Below, in pieces: positions 4,615 through 57,758 of a stretch of 64,000 nucleotides of DNA (position 1 is its first letter; the number at the start of each line of letters is the position of its first letter). Under the pieces are notes generated by a model, which worked only from the letters and a program-made list of their open reading frames with translations, did not search any database and was not told the DNA's origin. Source of the DNA: Alphaproteobacteria bacterium (GTDB lineage: Bacteria; Pseudomonadota; Alphaproteobacteria; Bin95); the NCBI GenBank assembly GCA_022827685.1, contig JAJEIH010000047.1, positions 16,536 to 80,535 of the forward strand, given 5' to 3'. A program made the position numbers and the translations under genes.

Positions 4615-6804
4615 ATGGACGACGCCCTGCCCGCCGCGCCTGCCGCCGACGCCCCCTGGCTCGCCGGGCTGAACCCCCCGCAGCGCGAGGCGGTCGAAAC
4701 GCTGGAGGGGCCGCTGCTGGTGCTCTCCGGCGCGGGCACCGGCAAGACGCGGGTGCTGACCGCGAGGCTCGCGCTGCTGCTGGCCATGAAGCGCGCCTGG
4801 CCCAGCCAGATCCTGGCGGTCACCTTCACCAACCGGGCGGCGAACGAAATGCGCGAGCGGGTGGAGGCGCTGATCGGCGAGATGAGCGCCGGCCTCTGGC
4901 TCGGCACCTTCCACGCGCTCGGCCTGCGCATATTGCGCCGCCATCCCGAGCTCGTGGGCCTCAGGCCCTCCTTCTCGATCCTGGACCCGGACGACCAGGA
5001 GCGTCTTCTGAAACAGGTGCTGGCGGACGCGAATGTGGATGCCAAGCACTGGCCGGCGCGCCAGCTTTCGACCGTCGTCCAGCGCTGGAAGGACAAGGGG
5101 TGGCGCCCGGACCAGGTGCCGGCCCACGAGGCGGGCAGCTTCGCCAACGGCCGCGCGCCCGCGCTTTACGAGGCCTATCAGGAGCGGCTTGCCGACCTCA
5201 ACGCCGTCGATTTCGGCGACCTGCTGCTCCACAACCTGACCATCTTCCAGCGCGATGCGGAGGTGCTGGCGCAATACCAGGAGCGGTTCCGCTACATCCT
5301 CGTGGACGAATACCAGGACACCAATATCGCCCAGTATCTCTGGCTCCGCCTGCTCGCCCAGCGCCGGCGCAACATCTGCTGCGTCGGCGACGACGACCAG
5401 TCGATCTACGGATGGCGCGGGGCGGAGGTCGGCAACATCCTGCGCTTCGAGAACGATTTCGACGGCGCCAGGATCGTCCGGCTGGAGCAGAACTATCGCT
5501 CGACCGGCGACATTCTGGGCGCCGCCTCGGGGCTGATCGCCAACAATCGCGGCCGCCTCGGCAAGACGCTCTGGACAGACCGCGAGGACTCCCGCCCGAT
5601 TACCGTCCACACCGTTCCCGACGGGGAGGCGGAGGCGCGGCTTGCCGGCGCGGAAATCGAGACGCTGCAGCGCGCCGGGACCGGCCTCGGACAGATGGCG
5701 GTTCTCGTGCGAGCCTCATTCCAGATGCGCGCCTTCGAGGAGCGGTTCGTCGCGCTCGGGCTGAATTACCGGGTCATCGGCGGCCCGCGCTTCTACGAGC
5801 GCCGCGAGGTGAGGGACGCCATCGCCTATCTGCGCGCCGTCCTCTTCCCCGAGGACGATCTTGCCTTCGAGCGGATCGTCAACCTGCCGAAACGCGGCAT
5901 TGGCGACGCCACCCTGCAACCGGTGCATCGCCTCGCCCGCGCCGAGCGGATCCCGCTCGGCCAGGCGGCGCGCCGTCTGGTCGAGACGGAGGAATTGAAG
6001 GCCCGGGCCCGCAACGCGCTCGCCGGCTTCTGCCGCGCCATCGACGGCTGGCGCGCCCGGCTCGGCAGCGAGCCGCACGCAGACCTTGCCGACGCGATTC
6101 TCGAGGAGAGCGGCTACCGCGAGATGTGGCGGAAGGACAAGGGCCTCGACGCCCCCGGCCGGCTGGAGAATCTGGGCGAACTCGTGCAGCAGATCGCCCG
6201 GTTCGACACCCTCGAAGAGTTTCTGGAGCATGTCGCCCTGGTGATGGAGGCCGAAGGCGGCAGCGAAGCGGAAAGCGTCTCCCTGATGACGCTCCACGGC
6301 GCCAAGGGGCTCGAATTCGACATCGTGTTCCTGCCGGGCTGGGAGGAGGGCCTGTTCCCCCACCAGCGCGCGCTCGCCGAGAACGGGCTTGCCGGCCTGG
6401 AGGAGGAACGCCGCCTCGCCTATGTCGGCATCACCCGCGCGCGCCGGCATGTCACGATCTCCTCCGCCATGACCCGCATGGTCATGGGTCGGTGGCTCAG
6501 CCCGCTCCCGTCCCGATTCATCGACGAGCTGCCCGATGAGCATGTGGAGCGGCAGTCGGAGAATGCGTTCGGCGAGGCCCCCGCCTGGCGCTACGGCGCG
6601 GGCGTCGGGCGCGTGATCGACGCCGCGGCATGGGAGGTGAAACCGCGCGCGCCCCGCACCGGCCAATTCGAGATCGGCCAGCGCGTCTTTCATCAGAAGT
6701 TCGGCTATGGAGCCGTGCGGGCCGTCGACCGGGAGAAACTCACCGTCGCCTTCGAGACCTCCGGCGACAAGACCCTGATCGAGAGCTTCGTCGAGCCCGC
6801 CTGA
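4615..6804 (+). CDS. uvrD: UvrD/Rep-family ATP-dependent DNA helicase (likely UvrD)
   Basis: 729 aa carrying Walker A (GAGTGKT) and the helicase motifs DEYQDTN, VGDDDQSIYGWRGA and TLHGAKGLEFD. Confidence 0.85.
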   Translation: MDDALPAAPAADAPWLAGLNPPQREAVETLEGPLLVLSGAGTGKTRVLTARLALLLAMKRAWPSQILAVTFTNRAANEMRERVEALIGEMSAGLWLGTFHALGLRILRRHPELVGLRPSFSILDPDDQERLLKQVLADANVDAKHWPARQLSTVVQRWKDKGWRPDQVPAHEAGSFANGRAPALYEAYQERLADLNAVDFGDLLLHNLTIFQRDAEVLAQYQERFRYILVDEYQDTNIAQYLWLRLLAQRRRNICCVGDDDQSIYGWRGAEVGNILRFENDFDGARIVRLEQNYRSTGDILGAASGLIANNRGRLGKTLWTDREDSRPITVHTVPDGEAEARLAGAEIETLQRAGTGLGQMAVLVRASFQMRAFEERFVALGLNYRVIGGPRFYERREVRDAIAYLRAVLFPEDDLAFERIVNLPKRGIGDATLQPVHRLARAERIPLGQAARRLVETEELKARARNALAGFCRAIDGWRARLGSEPHADLADAILEESGYREMWRKDKGLDAPGRLENLGELVQQIARFDTLEEFLEHVALVMEAEGGSEAESVSLMTLHGAKGLEFDIVFLPGWEEGLFPHQRALAENGLAGLEEERRLAYVGITRARRHVTISSAMTRMVMGRWLSPLPSRFIDELPDEHVERQSENAFGEAPAWRYGAGVGRVIDAAAWEVKPRAPRTGQFEIGQRVFHQKFGYGAVRAVDREKLTVAFETSGDKTLIESFVEPA

Positions 6805-15806: not shown

Positions 15807-15882
15807 GGCCGGGCGGGCTTCCGCCGCCGGCGGGCCGGCGAGTGTGCTAAGGTTCGGCGACGCAGTCCCGGAGCGGAGGCTC

Positions 15883-16551
15883 ATGGAACGCAGCATCGGC
15901 AGCATGGGATCGGAATACACGCGCTTCCGCGTCGATCCGGAGGCTGTGCCGCTCCTGGCGAAGCTCGACTGGAACAGCATTGCGCGCCGGGTGTTCATCG
16001 ATCCCGCCGGCGGCCGCGTCGCGCTCATGACGCCGTCTTCGAAGCATGAACGCTACGCCTGGGGCACCGGCCGGCTGATGGATGCCGTGGACAGGGCCGG
16101 CATCCCCGTAGTCGCGCTCGGATCGACCCGCTGGCGCCGGCCCGAAGACCCGGAGAACACCGGGGCCGAACCCGACGCCTGCTACTATCTGGGCGAGACC
16201 GCCGAGCGCTGGGGGCGGGCTTACGAACGGGGCGAGCCGGAACTGGAAGCGTTCGAGTTGCACACGCCGCCGTCGCTCGTGATCGAGGTCGAGCGGAGTT
16301 TCGGCGACGGGGACAAGCCCGCCTTCTACCGCCGGCTGGGCGTGCCGGAAATGTGGCGGCTCGACATCTCGGGGAACACGCGCGAAGCGGCCATGCTGGA
16401 CCTCCAGGCTCCGGACGGCCCGGCGGAACTGGCGTCCTCGCTCGTGCTGCCCCCGGCGACCCCGTCCTTCGTGCTGACTGCGCTGGAACTGGCTGTCCGC
16501 CGCCGCCTCGGCGAACTCGACGCCCTGATCGGGGCGCAGAAAATCCACTGA
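15883..16551 (+). CDS. Uma2 (DUF820) family PD-(D/E)xK endonuclease-like protein, copy 1
   Basis: AEPDACYYLG and PSLVIEVERSFGDGDKPAFYRRLGVPEMWRLD fit the Uma2 signature. It is about 60% identical to a paralog at 42757-43434. The start could be 15883 or 15904. Confidence 0.7.
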   Translation: MERSIGSMGSEYTRFRVDPEAVPLLAKLDWNSIARRVFIDPAGGRVALMTPSSKHERYAWGTGRLMDAVDRAGIPVVALGSTRWRRPEDPENTGAEPDACYYLGETAERWGRAYERGEPELEAFELHTPPSLVIEVERSFGDGDKPAFYRRLGVPEMWRLDISGNTREAAMLDLQAPDGPAELASSLVLPPATPSFVLTALELAVRRRLGELDALIGAQKIH

Positions 16552-38721: not shown

Positions 38722-39588
38722 ATGATCCGCACCGTCCTCCTGTCGTTTGCCCTCTTGCTTGCGGCCGGACCGCTGGAGGCGGAGCCCTACAAGGGCTTCC
38801 CGCGCGGCCACGCCCTCATTTCCGCAGCCGCGCTGAACGCCCTTCTGGACGGTCCCGGGCCAAAACCCGTCGTGCTGGCGGCGGTCGGCCGGGTGCCCTG
38901 GTTGCTGGGGCATATTCCGGGCGCGCAGCGCGTCCAGCGCCGCGCCTATACCGACCGCAACGGCATGGCTGTGGACCGGGAGCGTTTCCAGGCGTTCGCG
39001 CGCAGCCTCGGCATAGACGACGGGACTCCCGTCGTCGTCTATGACAACACCTATGACGCCGCGCGCCTCTGGTGGCTGTTCCGGCTATACGGGAAGACCG
39101 ATGTGAGGGTTCTGGACGGCGGCTGGCGGGCCTGGGACGAGGCGGGTTACGCCGTCGAGCGCGGTCCCGGCGGAGCGGCGCCGAAGGCCGGGAACTTCAC
39201 GGCCGCGCCCGCGCTCGCCGGCTGGACGGCCGGCTTCGATGAGGTGGCGCAGGCCCGTCCGGACGCGGGCGCACATCTCTGGGATGCGCGCGACACGCCG
39301 GAGTGGAAGGGGACCGGCCCCATCGGCGAAGCCCGCTTCATCGGCTGGCGGGCGTTTCGCAGGACGGATGAGGGCCGGCCCGCGGAGTTCCGCACCGCCG
39401 CTGAAATCGACGCCATCCTCCGGAAGGCGGGCTTCGAACCGGACCGGGACCACATCTTCTACTGCCATTCCGGCGTGCGCGCCGCCACGCCGATGCTCGC
39501 GCTCTACCTCATGGGCTATCCCGTCGAACGCCTGCGCCTCTATGACGGCTCCTGGATGGAATGGAGCCGGCGGGCGTCGCGGGGTTAG
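38722..39588 (+). CDS. Rhodanese-domain sulfurtransferase (thiosulfate/3-mercaptopyruvate type) with signal peptide
   Basis: A signal peptide (MIRTVLLSFALLLAAGPLEA) is followed by two rhodanese domains. The active-site loop is CHSGVRAA. Confidence 0.8.
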   Translation: MIRTVLLSFALLLAAGPLEAEPYKGFPRGHALISAAALNALLDGPGPKPVVLAAVGRVPWLLGHIPGAQRVQRRAYTDRNGMAVDRERFQAFARSLGIDDGTPVVVYDNTYDAARLWWLFRLYGKTDVRVLDGGWRAWDEAGYAVERGPGGAAPKAGNFTAAPALAGWTAGFDEVAQARPDAGAHLWDARDTPEWKGTGPIGEARFIGWRAFRRTDEGRPAEFRTAAEIDAILRKAGFEPDRDHIFYCHSGVRAATPMLALYLMGYPVERLRLYDGSWMEWSRRASRG

Positions 39589-39615
39589 CGTCGGACGCCG
39601 CGCCGGGGCCGTTCC

Positions 39616-40036
39616 CCTGCTTGCACCGCCGGCGGGCGAGGCGACGTTTGCGCTCCAGGCGGTGGCGTTTCAGGAAGCGCTGGACCGTCGCCGCGCTGAA
39701 CGCCAGCCCCTCGGCGGCCAGCGCGTCGCGCAACCCGTATATGGAAAGCTTCGGCTGCGCCGCCAGGATGCGGAAGATCCGCTCCCGCTCGGGCTCGATC
39801 CGCAAGCGGCTGCCGCCCTGCTTTCCGGACCGCACATGGCCGTGCTCGCGGAACTGCTTCACCCAGCGCTGGACGGACTTCTCGCCCAGCCCGAAATGCC
39901 GGGCTGCGGCCCGGACGCCCATGCCGTGGCGCACCACCGCCGCCACCGCCTGCCCCCGCAGGTCCGCATCCACGGCCCGGCCCCGCCTCGGTCCCGGCAG
40001 TCCACCCTCCGGCCCGCCCGCTCTCCCGTCCGTCAT
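39616..40036 (-). mobile_element. IS630-family transposase N-terminal (HTH) fragment; the DDE domain is missing
   Basis: LRGQAVAAVVRHGMGVRAAARHFGLGEKSVQRWVKQFREHGHVRSGKQGGSRLRIE...GLAFSAATVQRFLKRHRL aligns with the IS630 transposase N-terminus. The frame then continues as antisense of the rhodanese gene, so no catalytic domain is present. Confidence 0.55.
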
Positions 40037-40491
40037 CGCTCCTCCTCCTTCTCCATATGCCGCGCCGGAGCCCCTGCCCGGTCAGGTTGAACGAACCGCC
40101 GCGCCGACTGCCGCCCTTCCGCCTCCGGCCGCGCCGTCGCCGTCCTCGAGGTCAGGTTGGATGAAATGCGGCCCTGCTTCCCGCATCGCGGCGGCCGCAC
40201 CCCTCCCGCTTGCCGTCTGGCCCCGGCCGCCGGCGTCGCGGGTTGGAAACGTCAAGCGGAACGGCACGCCGCGCGCCCGCTCCCGACAGGTCGTCAGGTC
40301 ATGGCCTCTTTCACCCGGTTACCGGCTAATGAAACATATATGGAACAAATAGGGGTGATGTTAAGCCCGAATGCGCCCCTCCGCAACCGGTCCCGGCGCC
40401 CCTTGCGGCCTGCGACCGATTGCACATGGGTGTTGGACAAACGCGGCGGATGTCCTATGATGAATGCTGCACTGCAACAAAGGAGTGAGTC

Positions 40492-42065: not shown

Positions 42066-42721
42066 TTACCGGCGCGGCGCGCGGCATCGGCCGCGCGCTG
42101 GCGAGCGACTATCTCGCCGACGGCTGGCGGGTGCTGGCGGTCTGCCGCGATCCGGCGGCGCTGGCGGGACTCGACGGCATCGCCGATGCGGCCCGCCTCG
42201 ATGTGACGGACGACGAGGGCATTGCCGCGCTCGCCGAACGCTGGCGGGACGAGCGCATCGACCTGCTCTGGAACAATGCCGGCGTGGACTCGCCCAATAC
42301 CCGCTCGCTCGCCCGGCTCGACACGGAGGAGTGGGCCCGGTGCCTGCGCATCAACACGATTGCGCCGGTGGCGATGGCGGCGGCATTCGCCGGCCAGGTC
42401 GCTGCAAGCGAGCGGCGCATCATGGTGTTCGTGACGAGCCAGTTGGGCTCGATTTCGCAGGCGGCCGGCGTGCGCCGCTATGCCTACAGCAGCTCGAAGG
42501 CGGGGCTCAATATGGCGGCCCGCACCCTCGCGCTGGAGCTTGCGGGCCAGGTCAGGGTCGCGATCCTGCATCCGGGCCATGTCGCCACGGATATGGGCGG
42601 GCGGCACGCCCCGGTGACGCCGGAGGAAAGCGCGCGTGGCATGCGGCGCATCGCCGAGCGCCTCACAGACCGCCAGTCCGGCGCCTTCCTCGACTGGCGG
42701 GGGCGCACGATTCCCTGGTGA
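42050..42721 (+). CDS. Short-chain dehydrogenase/reductase (SDR)
   Basis: A GTG start gives [17 protein letters not shown] (TGxxxGxG), NNAG and YxxxK (YAYSSSKAG). Confidence 0.85.
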
Positions 42722-42756
42722 GGCCAACCGGAATCGCCTCGGTGGTCCCGGACAGG

Positions 42757-43434
42757 TCAGGTCGAACGGCGGCGGCCTGTCTTCTCGTTTGAAATGCGGT
42801 CGATGATCGCAGCTTCCAATTCCGACAGACGGTTGTCGACAGCCAATTCCAGGGCGTCCAGAACGAATGCCGGGGTTGCCGGGGCAAGCACGCCGGAGGC
42901 ATTCAGGACCTTTGGACCGTCCGGCGCCTGCAGGTCCAGCATGACCGCTTCCCGGACATTTCCCGAAATGTCGAGCCGCCACATCTCGGCAGCGCCGAGC
43001 CGGCGGTAGAACGCGGGCTTGTCCGCGTCGCCGCGGCTCCGCTCGACCTCGATCACGAGATCGGGCGGCGTCCGGCGGTAGAACGCCGCCAGCGCCTCGC
43101 TGCCTTCCCGGCGGGCCTCATCCCGCCCTTCGGCGGAGGCTCCGAGGTAAAAGCAGGCGTCGGGCTCCGCCCCGCTGTTCTCCGGGTCGTCCGGGCGGCG
43201 CCAGCGCGTCGATCCCAGCGTGACGACCCGCAGCTTCAGGGCCCGGCACATGTCCTGCACCGTCCGGTCGATCCCCCGCGTATATTCCTCATGCTCGGGC
43301 GAAGGTGACATCAGCGCAATCAACCCGCGCACGGGATCGATAAAGACCCGCCGGCCGACGATATTCCAATCGAGCTTCGCAAGCCGCGGGATTTCTTCCG
43401 GCACGAAACGATAGAGCGTGAACCGGGACCCCAT
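42757..43434 (-). CDS. Uma2 (DUF820) family PD-(D/E)xK endonuclease-like protein, copy 2
   Basis: It is about 60% identical to copy 1 (AEPDACFYLG, PDLVIEVERSRGDADKPAFYRRLGAAEMWRLD). It has a C-terminal extension of about 12 aa encoded by a repeated CAGGTCAGGTCGAAC motif. The start could be 43434 or 43509. Confidence 0.7.
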   Translation of the reverse strand: MGSRFTLYRFVPEEIPRLAKLDWNIVGRRVFIDPVRGLIALMSPSPEHEEYTRGIDRTVQDMCRALKLRVVTLGSTRWRRPDDPENSGAEPDACFYLGASAEGRDEARREGSEALAAFYRRTPPDLVIEVERSRGDADKPAFYRRLGAAEMWRLDISGNVREAVMLDLQAPDGPKVLNASGVLAPATPAFVLDALELAVDNRLSELEAAIIDRISNEKTGRRRST

Positions 43435-43579
43435 GCTGCCCGTGCAGCGCTCAATGCCAATGGTGTCGCCCACCGGTTCCAACTCCCGCAGGCCGTTGAC
43501 CGACCGCACTATAGCCTATCCGCGCGGCAGGATGCCAAAACCGCAGCGTTGGGGCGTGTCCCGCTCGCTATGGTTCGCG

Positions 43580-43710
43580 TGACAGAAGCGGACCGGACAT
43601 GTCCGGGGACAGCACGCTTGCACCGAATGGCGTCGCGATCCCGCCCGCATCACCGAGTGTATTGGCCGCGGCATTGAAGAATGCGGCGGGCACCCACCCT
43701 TGAGCCGCAT
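43580..43710 (-). pseudogene. C-terminal fragment of a CoxL/XdhA-family molybdopterin enzyme
   Basis: The minus-strand translation ...VPAAFFNAAANTLGDAGGIATPFGASVLSPDMSGPLLSREP* resembles the conserved C-terminus of CoxL-family large subunits. Compare the intact neighbour, which ends AVPAPAAVFNAVDDALGG.... There is no upstream coding continuation. Confidence 0.4.
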
Positions 43711-43741
43711 TGCGCGCCTCTCGGGAAGCTCCTTACAAGTC

Positions 43742-44263
43742 TCAATCCTGACCCCAGGAAACCGGACGTTCTATTCGGCCCAGTCTGACAAGACGGCTTC
43801 GTATGGCGCCGTTCGTTCGCTCGTGGCTGGCGGCAAGCTCCTTGATCGTGGCACCTAAGTCGAAGGCTTGCGCCAGCCGCTCGTCCTCTTCGGGCTTCCA
43901 TGTTTCTCCGTTTCGATTCGGACCTTCGTTTTCTATTCGCCCCAGCTTTGCAAGACGTCGTTGTATGTCGCTGGACGTCCGCCCGTGGCTGGCGGCAAGT
44001 TCCTCGATTGTGACGCCTGAGTCGAAGGCTTGCGCCAGCCGCTTGCCCTCATCAACCGTCCACCTTTGTCTGTCTCGGGACTGCTTGCGATTCTCACGGT
44101 CGGTTCCTGCGACGCGGTGGCGGAATACAGTCACCGCGTGCCCCAACGCTCGTATGACATCGGGTTGCTGGATGACAGAGGTGCGAGGCAACACTTCCCC
44201 GGTTTCCGGATCGACGCCTTGAGCTAATGAGTTCAGGATATTTAGAGTCCGGTCATCCTCCAT
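43742..44263 (-). CDS. Hypothetical protein with two tandem Myb/SANT-like HTH repeats; low-GC codon usage
   Basis: About 173 aa from MEDDRTLNILNS.... The protein repeats are WTVDEGKRLAQAFDSGVTIEELAASHGRTSSDIQRRLAKLGRIE and WKPEEDERLAQAFDLGATIKELAASHERTNGAIRSRLVRLGRIE (pattern W-x-x-E-E/D...L...G-RT...I..RL). The gene is about 55% GC. Confidence 0.6.
   Translation of the reverse strand: MEDDRTLNILNSLAQGVDPETGEVLPRTSVIQQPDVIRALGHAVTVFRHRVAGTDRENRKQSRDRQRWTVDEGKRLAQAFDSGVTIEELAASHGRTSSDIQRRLAKLGRIENEGPNRNGETWKPEEDERLAQAFDLGATIKELAASHERTNGAIRSRLVRLGRIERPVSWGQD
43771..44063. repeat. Tandem direct repeat, 2 x about 160 bp (about 80% identity), inside the Myb-like gene
   Basis: Unit 1 (43771-43900) and unit 2 (43931-44063) share long identical runs (cgtggctggcggcaag...gtcgaaggcttgcgccagccgc). 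Confidence 0.6.
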
Positions 44264-44357
44264 GAACGAACGCCTCAGCCTCTCGCCGGAATATCCAGGA
44301 TACAGCATATGGCAGCAGTATTGGAGGAGATGAGCCACCTCCGCGCCCGCCAGCTCA

Positions 44358-44455
44358 GGCGTAGTCGATCTTCGCGGTCTCGTAGTAACGCGCGCCGCCC
44401 GGGGCATCGACCTCAATCTGGTCGCCGACCGACTTGGCGATCATCGCGCGGGCCA
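44358..44455 (-). pseudogene. 3'-terminal fragment of a greA paralog/copy (about 100 bp, about 87% identical to the real greA 3' end at 47110-47210)
   Basis: It encodes ...ARAMIAKSVGDQIEVDAPGGARYYETAKIDYA* against real GreA ...ARAMIGKSVGDQIEVDAPGGARYYEIVKIDYA*. Homology begins at the stop codon and ends abruptly where the acyl-CoA dehydrogenase fragment begins. Confidence 0.7.
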
Positions 44456-44690
44456 TCGGCAAGGCGTGCGGGCCGCAGGCCAATGCCGCGACATACCTGG
44501 CGGCGGAGGTGGGCCACGAGGCCTGCGAACGAGCCATCCTGACCCGTGGCGGCAGGCTACGCCAAGGAGTAGCATGTGGAGCGCTGGTTCAGGGAGATCT
44601 GGATCGCCCGGATCGTGCCCGTAAGCTGACAGCTCGCGCTCTCCTTTATCACCGAGAAGGAGCTGGACCTGCCGAAGAACTACTGAGGCG
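44456..44690 (+). pseudogene. 3'-terminal fragment of an acyl-CoA dehydrogenase copy (about 88% identical to the 3' end of the intact gene at 56589-56830; inverted relative to it)
   Basis: It encodes ACGPQANAATYLAAEVGHEACERAILTRGG, then after a 2-nt deletion ...VERWFREIWIARIVP..LALSFITEKELDLPKNY*, against the real ...EACGPQANAAKYLAAEVGHEACERAILTHGGMGYAKEYHVERWLREIWIARIAPVSWQLALSFIAEKELDLPKSY*. Confidence 0.7.
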
Positions 44691-44724
44691 CCCCAGCCCT
44701 CTTCCCCTCGTGTCCCGGCGCATG

Positions 44725-44830
44725 ACCGCGATTGCTGCGGTTCCTGCGGAGGCGGCGGACGGGAGACCGGCACGCCTTGCGATGCCGGAGGAAAGCGCGC
44801 CGCCTCGCCGAGCGCCTCGCCGGCCGCCGG
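44725..44830 (+). pseudogene. Degenerate 3'-terminal fragment of an SDR gene (resembles 42590-42690 of the intact SDR)
   Basis: Shared DNA blocks are ggcacgcc, gccggaggaaagcgcgc and tcgccgagcgcctc, giving about 75% identity over about 100 bp with one 10-bp indel. Confidence 0.45.
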
Positions 44831-47104
44831 TCACTCGCTTTTTGTCAGCGGGGGCGGGAACCCGCGCGCCAGCGGCATCGACAAACCCTCCGCGCCGCCC
44901 AGAGCGTCGTCAACCGCGTTGAAGACGGCGGCGGGCGCCGGCACCGCGCCGCCCTCGCCGCCCGCCTTGACGCCGAGCGCGTTGGTGGGCGAGGGCACTT
45001 CGTGGAGTACGACGGCGAAGGCCGGCAGGTCGTCGGCGCGCGGCATCGCATAGTCCATGAAGGAGCCCGCCAGCTGCTGGCCCGCCTCGTCCCAGACGAC
45101 TTCCTCCAGCATGGCCTGTCCGACGCCCTGCGCGGCGGCCCCGTGGGTCTGGCCCTCCACGATCGTCGGATTGACCGCACGGCCCACATCGTCCACGGCG
45201 GCGTAGCGCGCGAGCCGCACCCTGCGCGTCTCCGGATCCACCTCGACTTCGGCGACATGGCAGCCGTTCGGGTAGACGGCCGGCTCGAACAGGTTTTCCC
45301 GGCGCACCCGGAGCGGCCCGAGTTCGGCCAGCAGCGCCCGCCCCGAGGGACCGTCGAACCCGCCATTCCGGAAAGCGATGTCGTTGCTCGCAAGCCGGCG
45401 CGCGGCTAGCGGGCGCGCAGCGTCGATGAGGTCTTCGGCCGCCAGCCGGATGACCTCGCCCGCCATGCGCATCGACCGGCCCGAATGCGAACCGCCGCCG
45501 ACGGCGATCCGGTCGGTGTCGCCCGTCGAAACGTCGATGCGCTCGAAGGGAATGCCGAGCGCGTCGGCCGCGACCTGGGCGAAGGCGGTCTCATGGCCCT
45601 GGCCGCTCGGCTGCGTGCCGATCAGCACTTCGAGCCGGCCGTCCTCCGTCAGGACCAGCTCGGCCTGCTCGCGCGGCGAACCGATGGAGGACTCGACATA
45701 ATGGGCGACGCCCCGCCCGTAGCGGCGCCCTTCGGCTTCCGCGGCCGCCTTGCGGGAGAGGAATCCCGCTTCGTCGGAGAGCGCAAGCGCCTTGTCCAGC
45801 GCGGCTTCGTATTCGCCGCTGTCATAAACCGCGCCCAGCGCATTGCAGTAGGGGAAGGAACGGACGAAATTGGCCCTGCGGAGCGCTGCGGGATCAAAAC
45901 CGAGCTCCCGCGCCGCCTTGTCCACCAGCCGCTCGATGACGAAGCAGACTTCCGGTCGTCCGGAGGAACGGTAGGCCTGGGTCGGCGCGGTATGGCTGAA
46001 CACCGCCCGCGCGCGGACCGTCGCCGCGGGAATGTCGTAGGAGCCGGTCACCAGAATAGCGCCCTTGCCGAGCGGCGAGAGCGAGACGCAACGCGCGCCG
46101 ACATTGGAGATATTGTCCGCCTTCAAGGCGAGGAACCGGCCGTTTGCATCGAGGGCCAGCGCGGCGCGCGAGACAAGGTCGCGGCCCTGATAGTCGCTCA
46201 GCATCGCTTCCGACCGGCTCGCCACCCAGCGCACCGGGCGGCCGGTCAGCCGGGCGGCCCAGAGCACGATGCCGAACTCGACATAGACGCGGTTGCGCAC
46301 GCCGAAATTGCCGCCGACATCGCCGCAGACGACCCGCAGCCGGCCGGGGTCGATTCCCAGCACCGCCGCGAGCTCGCCCTTGTGCCGCACCGCGCCGCCC
46401 GACCCGGCATATAGCGTGTAGCGACCGGTCGAAGCATCGAAGGCGCCGAGCGCGGCGCGCGGCTCCAGCGGCGCGCCGGCGACCCGGGGCAGATGCGCCT
46501 CCAGCTCGACGATACGGGCCGCGCGGGCGAAGGCCGCCTCCACCCCGTCCGCATCGCCGAAGCGGCAATCGACCAGCACATTGTCCGTGCGGTCGTCCCA
46601 GACCAGGGGGGCGCCGGACGCCGCCGCCTCGCGGGTACCGGCGACCGCCGGCAGCGGCTCCCAATCGACGGCGATCCGCTCCACGGCGTCGGCCGCAAGC
46701 GCCGGCGTTTCGGCAATGACGGCCGCGACGGCTTCGCCCGCATGGCGCGCCTTGTCATGCGGTAGCAGCGGATGAGCGCCGATGAAGACCTCCGAGCCGC
46801 CGGGCCCGGTCAACGCCAAGTCGTTGCGCGTCTTCGGGAGCGGGTCGTGCGGGATGTCCCGGAAGCCCTCTGTCTGCGCGTCGAGGCCGGTCAGCACCGC
46901 CAGCACGCCGGGCATGGCGCGCGCCGGGGCCGTGTCGATGCTGCGGATGCGCGCGTGGGCATGCGGGCTTCGCAGCAGCTGCATGGCCGCTTCGCCGTCC
47001 TGCCACGGCAGGTCGTCGGTGAAGCGGCCGCGGCCGGTCAGCAGCCGCAGGTCCTCCTTGCGGAGAAGACGCCGGCCGACGGCGCCGCCTGCCCGGGACG
47101 ACAT
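44831..47104 (-). CDS. CoxL/XdhA-family molybdopterin-binding large subunit (aerobic-type CO dehydrogenase / xanthine dehydrogenase family)
   Basis: 757 aa with an N-terminal RKEDLRLLTGRGRFTDD and conserved Mo-cofactor binding regions (e.g. GGGFGVRNRV-like GGNFGVRNRV; AQGVGQAMLEEVVWDE). No CoxS/CoxM subunit genes are adjacent. Confidence 0.85.
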   Translation of the reverse strand: MSSRAGGAVGRRLLRKEDLRLLTGRGRFTDDLPWQDGEAAMQLLRSPHAHARIRSIDTAPARAMPGVLAVLTGLDAQTEGFRDIPHDPLPKTRNDLALTGPGGSEVFIGAHPLLPHDKARHAGEAVAAVIAETPALAADAVERIAVDWEPLPAVAGTREAAASGAPLVWDDRTDNVLVDCRFGDADGVEAAFARAARIVELEAHLPRVAGAPLEPRAALGAFDASTGRYTLYAGSGGAVRHKGELAAVLGIDPGRLRVVCGDVGGNFGVRNRVYVEFGIVLWAARLTGRPVRWVASRSEAMLSDYQGRDLVSRAALALDANGRFLALKADNISNVGARCVSLSPLGKGAILVTGSYDIPAATVRARAVFSHTAPTQAYRSSGRPEVCFVIERLVDKAARELGFDPAALRRANFVRSFPYCNALGAVYDSGEYEAALDKALALSDEAGFLSRKAAAEAEGRRYGRGVAHYVESSIGSPREQAELVLTEDGRLEVLIGTQPSGQGHETAFAQVAADALGIPFERIDVSTGDTDRIAVGGGSHSGRSMRMAGEVIRLAAEDLIDAARPLAARRLASNDIAFRNGGFDGPSGRALLAELGPLRVRRENLFEPAVYPNGCHVAEVEVDPETRRVRLARYAAVDDVGRAVNPTIVEGQTHGAAAQGVGQAMLEEVVWDEAGQQLAGSFMDYAMPRADDLPAFAVVLHEVPSPTNALGVKAGGEGGAVPAPAAVFNAVDDALGGAEGLSMPLARGFPPPLTKSE

Positions 47105-47109
47105 GGGGC

Positions 47110-47583
47110 TCAGGCGTAGTCGATCTTCACGATCTCGTAGTAGCGCGCCCCGCCGGGCGCATCGACCTCGATCTGGTCGCCGACCGACTTCCCGATCATC
47201 GCCCGCGCCAGCGGCGAGGCTATGGAGAGCCGGCCTTGGGCGACGTCGGACTCGTCCTGGCCGACAATGCGGTAGCAGGCTTCCTCGTCGGTCTCCTCAT
47301 CGACGACTGTAACCCGCGCGCTGAACATCACCTTGTCGCCGGAAATTTGCGCAGGATCGATCACCTCCGCCCGCGAGACCTTGTCCTCGAGCTCCGCCAT
47401 GCGGCCCTCGATGAAGGACTGCCGGTCGCGGGCCGCATGGTATTCGGCATTCTCGGACAGGTCCCCGTGCTCTCGGGCCTGAGCGATGGCCCGCACGACG
47501 GCAGGCCGCTCGACCGTTTTTAGCCGGCGCAGCTCCTCCTCCATCCGGCGATAGCCTTCAGGCGTCATCGGCACCTTGTCCAT
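47110..47583 (-). CDS. greA: Transcription elongation factor GreA
   Basis: MDKVPMTPEGYRRMEEELRRLK... has the GreA coiled-coil N-terminus and FKBP-like C-domain. The start could be 47583 or 47592. Confidence 0.9.
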   Translation of the reverse strand: MDKVPMTPEGYRRMEEELRRLKTVERPAVVRAIAQAREHGDLSENAEYHAARDRQSFIEGRMAELEDKVSRAEVIDPAQISGDKVMFSARVTVVDEETDEEACYRIVGQDESDVAQGRLSIASPLARAMIGKSVGDQIEVDAPGGARYYEIVKIDYA

Positions 47584-47615
47584 CTCAGCCATTTTCCCTT
47601 GCGCAAAAGCTACAA

Positions 47616-56562: not shown

Positions 56563-56588
56563 AGTTCACGCGGGGCGATGAGACCGCC

Positions 56589-57758
<1,170 letters not shown>

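Follow-up and report, generated by a model that had tools for sequence, protein, structure and literature searches.

The gene described here belongs to an uncultured alphaproteobacterium, known from MAG contigs of the KELL22-1 metagenomes, and lies in a 64,000-nucleotide stretch of DNA to which we refer as the window. It encodes a protein with an N-terminal domain and two HTH units in tandem, and it is carried, together with fragments of greA and of an acyl-CoA dehydrogenase gene, on a segment that varies between strains (Table 1). A longer, TTG-initiated ORF that extends to 44416 was set aside, as it enters the greA 3' fragment and all homologues start with MEDD or MQDD. Between 43400 and 44900 we found neither a sigma-70 consensus promoter nor an intrinsic terminator, an Rfam search of 42500-45500 returned no RNA family, and the sole palindrome upstream of the gene, TATCCAGGATA at 44292-44302, is short enough to be expected by chance.

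Table 1. Features of the HTH gene and its surroundings, in window coordinates.
Feature	Position	Strand	Basis or remark
CDS, 173 aa: N-terminal domain and two HTH units	43742-44263	minus	ORF list; ATG at 44263; stop codon 43742-43744
Shine-Dalgarno-like GAGG, 9 nt 5' of the ATG	44273-44276	minus	read from the sequence
N-terminal domain, aa 1-62: helix, GxDPxTGE hairpin loop, long helix with PxVIRAL	44078-44263	minus	family-defining
DNA tandem duplication, two copies of 147 nt each	43769-44077 (copies 43769-43915 and 43931-44077)		repeat search and alignment
HTH unit R1, diverged copy, aa 63-116	43916-44077	minus	AF2 helices 70-81, 86-93, 97-106
HTH unit R2, ancestral-type copy, aa 117-170	43754-43915	minus	AF2 helices 124-135, 140-146, 151-160
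Strain-variable patchwork segment bearing the HTH gene, 1272 bp	43568-44839		64 bp instead in 'empty' strains
Pseudogene fragment, last 113 nt of greA	44353-44465	minus	88% to resident greA 3' end (47108-47220); repeat search, blastn/tblastn, Pfam GreA_GreB C-terminal match
Frameshifted 3' fragment of an acyl-CoA dehydrogenase gene	44458-44690	plus	BLAST of L036 against the window; translations

A foreign, selected and strain-variable gene

With 58.6% GC and a GC3 of 61%, against 81-90% in six neighbouring genes and a window mean of 68% GC, the HTH gene is compositionally foreign; the label 'low-GC' under which it appeared in a preliminary description of this DNA is apt only relative to a GC-rich genome. 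The exact 173-residue protein occurs on 5 metagenome contigs, and the full reading frame is kept in two homologues, P0001 (96% identical) and P0002 (80%). Measured against P0002, at a dS of 0.35, dN/dS is 0.32 for the whole coding sequence and 0.31, 0.24 and 0.43 for the N-domain, R1 and R2, respectively. With all three modules under purifying selection, there is a strong case for translation of the ORF and for a function of the diverged R1, and the ratio of about 0.3 throughout indicates a selected protein, so that the earlier proviso that the ORF might prove untranslated can be dropped: it evolves as coding sequence.

An exact-sequence look-up of the neighbouring genes recovered four haplotypes of the locus. 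Haplotype A consists of greA, a MoCo oxidoreductase gene and an SDR gene (L043/L044), which is also the basal arrangement as judged from related genomes; haplotype B has greA, MoCo (774 aa), Uma2 and SDR (L035, which is GCA_022820525.1, and L037); haplotype C, that of the window, reads greA, MoCo (757 aa), acyl-CoA-dehydrogenase fragment, greA fragment, HTH gene, Uma2 and SDR; and in haplotype D the 3' end of greA is followed by the HTH gene (P0002) and SDR (L041; contig SRR16351684_436249). BLAST breakpoints fall at window positions 44840 and 43567, and in L035 and L037 the MoCo gene is followed directly by Uma2. The HTH gene is polymorphic in its presence among co-occurring strains, and for this genome it matters little, being a strain-variable accessory gene.

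The segment itself is a patchwork. Its acyl-CoA-dehydrogenase fragment is 88.5% identical, in inverted orientation, to window positions 56585-56819 (the resident gene occupies 56589-57758) and abuts the greA fragment back-to-back, the two overlapping by 8 nt. In haplotype D, the junction of greA with the HTH gene is homologous to that of the greA fragment with the HTH gene in the window, and on the strength of this shared junction the HTH unit was probably imported by recombination from a related strain that carried the gene just after greA. With its four haplotypes, the site downstream of greA is a small recombination hotspot in this lineage, one that should be useful for strain-resolved metagenomics of the source community. 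We found no integrase, tRNA or attC at the window locus and no GTTRRRY core site or attC at the borders of the gene. We rejected the idea that the greA direct repeat delimits an integrative element carrying the HTH gene: its copies lie on either side of the MoCo gene and not of the HTH gene, integrase and tRNA are missing, and the basal greA-MoCo-SDR order also counts against it. A functional tie to the adjacent Uma2 nuclease was likewise discarded, as Uma2 occurs without the HTH gene in haplotype B and the HTH gene without Uma2 in haplotype D. Elsewhere in the window, an IS630-like HTH-only fragment lies at 39509-40036.

An in-frame duplication and its two HTH units

That the ORF encodes two HTH repeats and that these stem from a tandem DNA duplication of about 160 bp, placed at 43771-44063, had been proposed before, and both points hold, with limits that were essentially right. 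The two DNA copies are 78% identical over 147 nt (BLAST E = 1e-28) and recur with a period of 162 bp from start to start, which is 54 codons and in frame; Tandem Repeats Finder reports nothing at its score threshold, the repeat being too diverged for it, though repeat search and BLAST show it. In the intact ORF, R1 and R2 are identical at 28 of 44 positions (64%, E = 3e-18). Their recognition helices read TSSDIQRRLAKLG in R1 and TNGAIRSRLVRLG in R2. Of the motif originally given for both repeats, the W-x-x-E-(E/D) start is exact in R2 (W-K-P-E-E-D) and loose in R1 (W-T-V-D-E-G), and the LGRIE end is present in both.

The two copies have not diverged alike. MAFFT aligns R2 with the single HTH of every one-repeat relative; its identity to the HTH of the nearest of these is 64-72%, compared with 51-53% for R1, and it agrees with the family HTH consensus at 74% of positions, whereas R1 has changed at consensus positions (EED to DEG, GAI to SDI, SRLVRLG to RRLAKLG). 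Between R1 and R2, dS is 0.43 and omega 0.65. Since P0002 has both repeats and this dS is slightly above the 0.35 that separates the window gene from P0002, the duplication is older than that split; it is not present in the next relatives, at about 57% identity. Two-HTH forms make up 3 of 150 representatives. In the other two-HTH cases (P0016, P0023, P0095 and P0293) the paired HTHs resemble one another far less, for which reason they are not products of the same event, and to judge from these comparisons the window clade is the only one with this recent duplication.

In keeping with the original 'Myb/SANT-like' label, each repeat is predicted to adopt the three-helix, homeodomain-like fold of Myb type, with helix 3 as the recognition helix. 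The AF2 model of the window protein has a pLDDT of 85.6 and a pTM of 0.41, the latter showing that the model does not define how the three modules are arranged relative to one another. Neither Pfam nor NCBIfam holds a model that reaches its cutoff on this protein, and the profile search that the preliminary description had recommended assigns the repeats to no ordinary bacterial regulator family above threshold. HTH_58 comes closest, at 23.6 against 23.8 bits. Myb_DNA-binding (PF00249) scores 20.5 against a cutoff of 24.4 bits (E = 5e-4, residues 121-135 only), or 13.3 and 14.3 bits with R1 and R2 in isolation, and the sigma-70 region 4 models likewise stay below cutoff (PF04545, 16.7 against 24.1 bits; PF08281, 11.9 against 25.7); the weak HTH_58, Myb_DNA-binding and Sigma70_r4 matches to the whole protein are all located in R2. 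A profile of the family finds, among PDB sequences, the second HTH of the Mos1 transposase (E = 8e-4) and c-Myb (E = 0.014), and phrog_323, 'transcriptional regulator, D5-like', matches over both repeats (E = 1e-14). The HTH assignment draws on predicted structure and on these sub-threshold profile matches, no model passing its cutoff, and by the models the repeats are homeodomain-like HTHs of Myb/GcrA type, for which 'Myb/SANT-like' is right at the level of the fold. In the Myb/SANT domain three regularly spaced tryptophans form the hydrophobic core; each repeat here has the first tryptophan alone, with F and L at the later core positions. The nearest solved structure is the bacterial GcrA DNA-binding domain (DBD) and not a eukaryotic Myb, and the eukaryote-like origin once considered is not needed.

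The N-terminal domain and the mobile company of its relatives

Among 5.8 billion proteins searched, 183 relatives were found, nearly all of them 110-145 residues long, with one HTH and annotated 'hypothetical protein'; the form of 173-176 residues is common only to P0001 and P0002 among them. Named sources are mostly Betaproteobacteria with some Gammaproteobacteria, and include Paraburkholderia, Ralstonia, Aquabacterium, Roseateles, Rhodoferax, Accumulibacter, Gallionella and Methylomicrobium. Members share an N-terminal domain of about 50-60 residues with nearly invariant L-A-x-G-x-D-P-x-T-G-E and P-x-V-I-R-A-L motifs, followed by a variable basic linker and one copy of the HTH (W-x-x-E-E-D-x-x-L-x-x-x-F-D-x-G-(5)-L-A-x-x-H-x-R-T-x-G-A-I-x-S-R-L-V-R-L-G-R-I). 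The window protein has all of the N-domain residues (L13, A14, G16, D18, P19, T21, G22, E23, P34, V36, I37, R38, A39 and L40), and P0001, 96% identical to it, matches the N-domain profile at E = 6e-20. R2 fits the single C-terminal HTH of the family, the extra copy R1 being the only departure of the window protein. The preliminary description, largely right as far as it went, was incomplete in that it overlooked this domain of about 60 residues, the single HTH of typical members and the strain-variable patchwork insert. The duplicated HTH is a new architecture within an unnamed, widespread Myb/GcrA-type HTH family rather than a new kind of system.

Modelled alone, the N-domain gives an alpha-hairpin (pLDDT 91) that matches just generic helical hairpins, and its profile retrieves from the PDB sequences nothing but a spurious loop match in P450-BM3 (NGKDPETGEPL). 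A HMMER scan with this profile over 1.84 billion representatives matched 2375 proteins at E<=1e-3, of which 1022 reached E<=1e-10, and this puts the family, by these sequence matches, at no fewer than 2375 clusters at 50% identity. Among the top 150 matches, about half have no detectable HTH, and many of those listed look frameshifted. In other proteins the N-domain is joined to an RNA-polymerase alpha-CTD-like domain (P0260, P0173), to HRDC (P0232 by Pfam, P0250 and P0267 by eye), to HTH_40 (P0314) or to the membrane domain 8xMP (P0236), and these fusions make it a modular partner of small nucleic-acid-binding domains. A literature search found no description of this family. A family of this size, at least 2375 clusters at 50% identity, is without a Pfam or NCBIfam model and travels as single-gene cargo, and it is in this undescribed domain family and its single-gene-cassette lifestyle that the main residual value of the present analysis lies.

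Outside the window, the genes around the relatives have little in common: 113 neighbours in 22 genomes or loci match 107 different Pfam families, which rules out a conserved operon or partner, and small ORFs found 13-21 nt upstream in several loci are not mutually homologous and look spurious. What recurs is mobile DNA. Relatives are found on the MOBF/MPF_F conjugative Burkholderia plasmids pBMUL01 and pBPSE01, near trfA/parB, H-NS, RES-Xre and zeta toxin genes (the pBMUL01 copy, WP_012211054, is a one-HTH member), on Ralstonia plasmids, and in one case on an island of Ralstonia that also bears integrase, ParA, H-NS and Tn3. In three loci the homologue lies 13-46 nt downstream of a toxin gene on the same strand, the pairs being Phd/PIN (L005), ParS-Xre/RES (L008) and DUF433/DUF5615 (L009). 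One related genome with haplotype A has, some 130 kb from that locus and directly behind a Phd/PIN toxin-antitoxin pair, a family member with one HTH (P0005, 53% identical). For the members in Rhodocyclales, Gallionella and Methylophilaceae, homology upstream of the gene sets in at a GTTRRRY core that precedes the ATG by 25-27 nt; in L015 a 62-nt, hairpin-forming AAC...GTTGGGC repeat is found on both sides of the gene, delimiting a cassette of 443 bp; and at the Accumulibacter locus small ORFs are arrayed on one strand with attC-like spacers between them. By these sequence features all of the latter are integron-type cassettes, and the family as a whole, distributed over plasmids, an island and cassettes, is an accessory family of mobile DNA.

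The suggestion that the gene is of a phage or plasmid accessory type has fared well on the side of plasmids, to which the island with its integrase, ParA and Tn3 and the integron-type cassettes can be added, and poorly on the side of phages. A tblastn search of 50,697 phage records gave just two marginal, HTH-only matches, the PHROG matches (phrog_323 and phrog_18209) are at the level of the HTH only, Foldseek against BFVD, likewise at that level, returns phage 'double Myb-like' proteins of about 105 residues at E of about 3e-3, and a pattern scan of IMG/VR viral contigs found no family member. With phage matches that are marginal or confined to the HTH and an empty IMG/VR scan, a phage origin is not supported.

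It is tempting to speculate that the N-domain is a new module of mobile DNA, interchangeably combined with Myb/GcrA-like HTH, alpha-CTD and HRDC domains in one-gene cassettes and perhaps docking to RNA polymerase or another host machine. We regard this as doubtful, but if it were true the family would form a new class of DNA-targeting factors, serving to manipulate the host or in defence/anti-defence, and not one of ordinary repressors, and the duplicated-HTH form in the window would be a retargeted variant.

A probable DNA-binding factor of mobile DNA compared with known systems

The reading that we favour, and hold to be reasonably probable, is that the HTH gene encodes a horizontally acquired, accessory DNA-binding protein of a large, unnamed, two-module family. 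It most likely serves mobile DNA as a sequence-specific regulator or DNA-binding factor and works with no fixed partner gene. The third helix of each HTH would then enter the DNA major groove, as in Tc3, Myb and the GcrA-DBD (PMC5887438). On pure inference, the N-domain would probably supply the affinity that members with one HTH lack, either by oligomerisation or by docking to a partner. The duplication would have joined two HTHs covalently into one reader, much as in Myb R2R3 or in the bipartite DNA-binding domains of Tc3 and Mos1; in this reader R2 would keep the ancestral recognition helix and R1 would have diverged towards a second, different half-site; one ancestral and one retuned recognition helix suggest a longer, asymmetric target site. 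Such a protein would act autonomously, as a DNA-binding regulator of mobile DNA.

Association with toxin-antitoxin (TA) pairs raises the alternative of an accessory part in a TA or defence/anti-defence system, be it as third-component regulator of the TA pair upstream or as a plasmid establishment or anti-defence factor. The homologues 13-46 nt after a same-strand toxin gene in L005, L008 and L009 would fit such a part, but they involve three different TA families and about 3 of 35 inspected loci, and TA adjacency is to be expected of any cargo of an integron array or island. Also in its favour are the RES-Xre, H-NS and zeta toxin genes near the pBPSE01 copy, BrnA antitoxins among the neighbours, and the one N-domain protein fused to 8xMP; the Uma2 neighbour in the window matches the PADLOC candidate PDC-S17, but each is found without the other, Uma2 in L035 and the gene in L041, and no PADLOC model matches the window protein or seven relatives. 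On balance we consider this alternative unlikely.

Less easily fitted to the data, and quite improbable in our view, is a role modelled on GcrA, in which the HTH would read methylated promoter DNA and the N-domain would replace the sigma-interacting domain to make a sigma-70 cofactor of mobile elements. The DBD of GcrA from Caulobacter crescentus (PDB 5YIU; PF07750) is the best structural match, and it has a like motif skeleton (W..E...L...aromatic..G....A....T..A[IV]...RLG, or with the aromatic residues named W..E...L...F/W..G.....A....T..A[IV]...RLG). PF07750 is borderline in some family members (the canonical HTH of P0110 scores 26.1 against a cutoff of 26.9 bits, and a second, different HTH of P0016 passes with 41.2 bits, E = 2.8e-10), but it matches neither the window protein, at E<=10, nor R1 or R2, at E<=1. 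CcrM/GcrA systems are usual in alphaproteobacteria, to which the host belongs (PMC3667746, PMC4647560), and an RNAP alpha-CTD-like domain is the fusion partner of the N-domain in some proteins. In GcrA, residues N34, I37, G38, H41 and R42 of the DBD read m6A-GANTC (PMC5887438); in a manual alignment on the RLG motif, which is not structure-based, T32, A35 and R42 would be kept and the base-contacting N34 and H41 would correspond to G and V. The order of domains is moreover reversed: the HTH of GcrA is N-terminal and single, with a CCCH zinc-finger, sigma-70-interacting domain at the C-terminus (PMC5887438), whereas that of the window protein is C-terminal and duplicated, and the protein, which has no cysteine and hence no CCCH domain, ends right after R2. 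GcrA is also a core cell-cycle gene, in contrast to an accessory, mobile one. Finally, the named family members are mostly from Betaproteobacteria and some from Gammaproteobacteria, which are not known to have a GcrA/CcrM circuit.

Decay into a pseudogene or a transposase-derived HTH remnant without present function, in a patchwork of gene fragments, is very unlikely: the 1.27-kb segment missing from some strains, with its greA and acyl-CoA-dehydrogenase fragments, the resemblance of the HTH to those of the Mos1 and Tc3 transposases, the IS630-like fragment at 39509-40036 and the failure of the promoter search might all suggest it, but the ORF is intact behind a good RBS, every module has a dN/dS of about 0.3 when compared with a homologue at dS 0.35 that keeps both repeats, and thousands of family members have a conserved N-domain and no DDE transposase domain.

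The gene and its family have likenesses to three further systems. The betaproteobacterial members resemble integron cassettes in being promoterless single ORFs, 25-27 nt after a GTTRRRY core, that can have attC-like flanking repeats (L015); the window copy differs in lacking attC and core and in lying in a recombination patchwork downstream of greA. To the Tc1/mariner (IS630-type) transposases (Tc3, 1TC3/1U78; Mos1, 3HOS) the family is linked by the match of its profile to Mos1 HTH2, which includes the ...RL.E.GKI tail, and their bipartite domain likewise has two tandem HTHs, which read adjacent DNA segments; the window protein differs from them in having no DDE domain (no DDE Pfam match) and no terminal inverted repeats, and its N-terminal alpha-hairpin is unrelated. 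Myb/SANT R2R3 and the phage 'double Myb-like' proteins of about 105 residues (Escherichia phages Skarpretter and Goslar) similarly combine two tri-helical HTHs, a short linker and W-x-x-E-E-D starts, and the Foldseek matches to the phage proteins span both repeats at 24-32% identity. Here too there are differences, as PF00249 stays below cutoff, the conserved N-terminal domain is absent from Myb proteins, and the repeats in the window stem from a lineage-specific duplication that is recent, not ancient. Duplication and divergence of this kind is the presumed origin of bipartite readers such as Myb R2R3, and the window clade offers a clean, datable case in which a DNA-binding domain was doubled in frame and then diverged asymmetrically, R2 staying ancestral and the recognition helix of R1 being altered yet still selected.

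Haplotypes at the greA/MoCo-SDR site

The region with greA/MoCo on one side and the SDR gene on the other exists as four haplotypes in related strains (window 42600-47600; L035, L037, L041, L043, L044); these haplotypes vary in the presence or absence of the Uma2 gene, the HTH gene and the MoCo gene. The length of the MoCo protein depends on the haplotype, at either 757 or 774 aa, because the insert replaces the final MoCo codons. The left copy of the greA 3' end is a pseudogene fragment and forms part of the imported patchwork segment, the strain-variable stretch that carries the HTH gene; it is not an att site. Neither an integrase nor a tRNA is present in the window near the greA repeat and the MoCo gene. 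The greA fragment and the acyl-CoA dehydrogenase fragment are joined back-to-back with an overlap of 8 nt, a fusion that looks like an illegitimate-recombination junction.

Features of the window and cassette sites in betaproteobacterial relatives
Feature	Position	Strand	Description
IS630-type ORF, 175 aa	39509-40036	-	transposase N-terminal DNA-binding part (HTH_23/HTH_28/HTH_32)
Uma2-family gene	42757-43509	-	putative endonuclease; adjoins HTH gene
Palindrome TATCCAGGATA	44292-44302		perfect 5+1+5; 29-39 nt 5' of HTH-gene start codon
greA 3'-end direct repeat	44353-44465 vs 47108-47220		113 nt, 88% identity
Acyl-CoA dehydrogenase, 3' fragment	44458-44690	+	frameshifted; 88.5% identical to resident gene (matching stretch 56585-56819)
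Orphan MoCo gene	44831-47104		xanthine-dehydrogenase-family large subunit; bracketed by the two greA 3'-end copies
Resident acyl-CoA dehydrogenase gene	56589-57758	-
Integron-type cassette sites	L010:5898-5981; L013:4000-8600		betaproteobacterial

The HTH gene and its neighbours

The palindrome upstream of the HTH gene, kept in part as TATCCCGGATG on the contig of the homologue P0002, could be an operator, yet it is short enough to have arisen by chance. Elsewhere, the N-terminal GxDPxTGE/PxVIRAL domain is fused to RNA polymerase alpha-CTD-like, HRDC, HTH_40 and 8xMP membrane domains (in P0260, P0173, P0232, P0250, P0267, P0236 and P0314). A further recurrent C-terminal domain of ~150 aa, without assignment, is seen in P0102, P0206, P0200 and P0279.

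The Uma2 protein matches PDC-S17, a PADLOC candidate defence protein (E 4.6e-15), and its gene has a paralogous stretch with 72% identity at window 15882-16497; haplotypes A (greA, MoCo, SDR) and D (greA 3' end, HTH gene, SDR) lack the Uma2 gene next to the HTH gene's site. The IS630-type ORF, which has no DDE domain, and the rhodanese gene overlap at the latter's end. Strains can be told apart by an indel (226 bp versus 100 bp) at window 40025-40250, and locus L036 has no call for this ORF.

Integron-type cassettes in relatives

At the Accumulibacter phosphatis locus, small ORFs are arrayed on the same strand with attC-like spacers between them. A second repeated element of ~60 nt (GGGACAGTATATAT..TTCCCGCGGCTG...CCGCGCCCT..CAxCxCCGCCACTTTG; L013:5779-6001 and 6366-6481) is also found there, with two copies upstream and one downstream of the family member, and differs from the attC-like spacers in that array.

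A GTTRRRY core lies 25-27 nt 5' of the ATG in betaproteobacterial family members, and at L015 attC-like hairpin repeats (5919-5980 and 6362-6423) stand on either side of a 443-bp cassette. The betaproteobacterial members of the HTH-gene family are integron-type cassettes.
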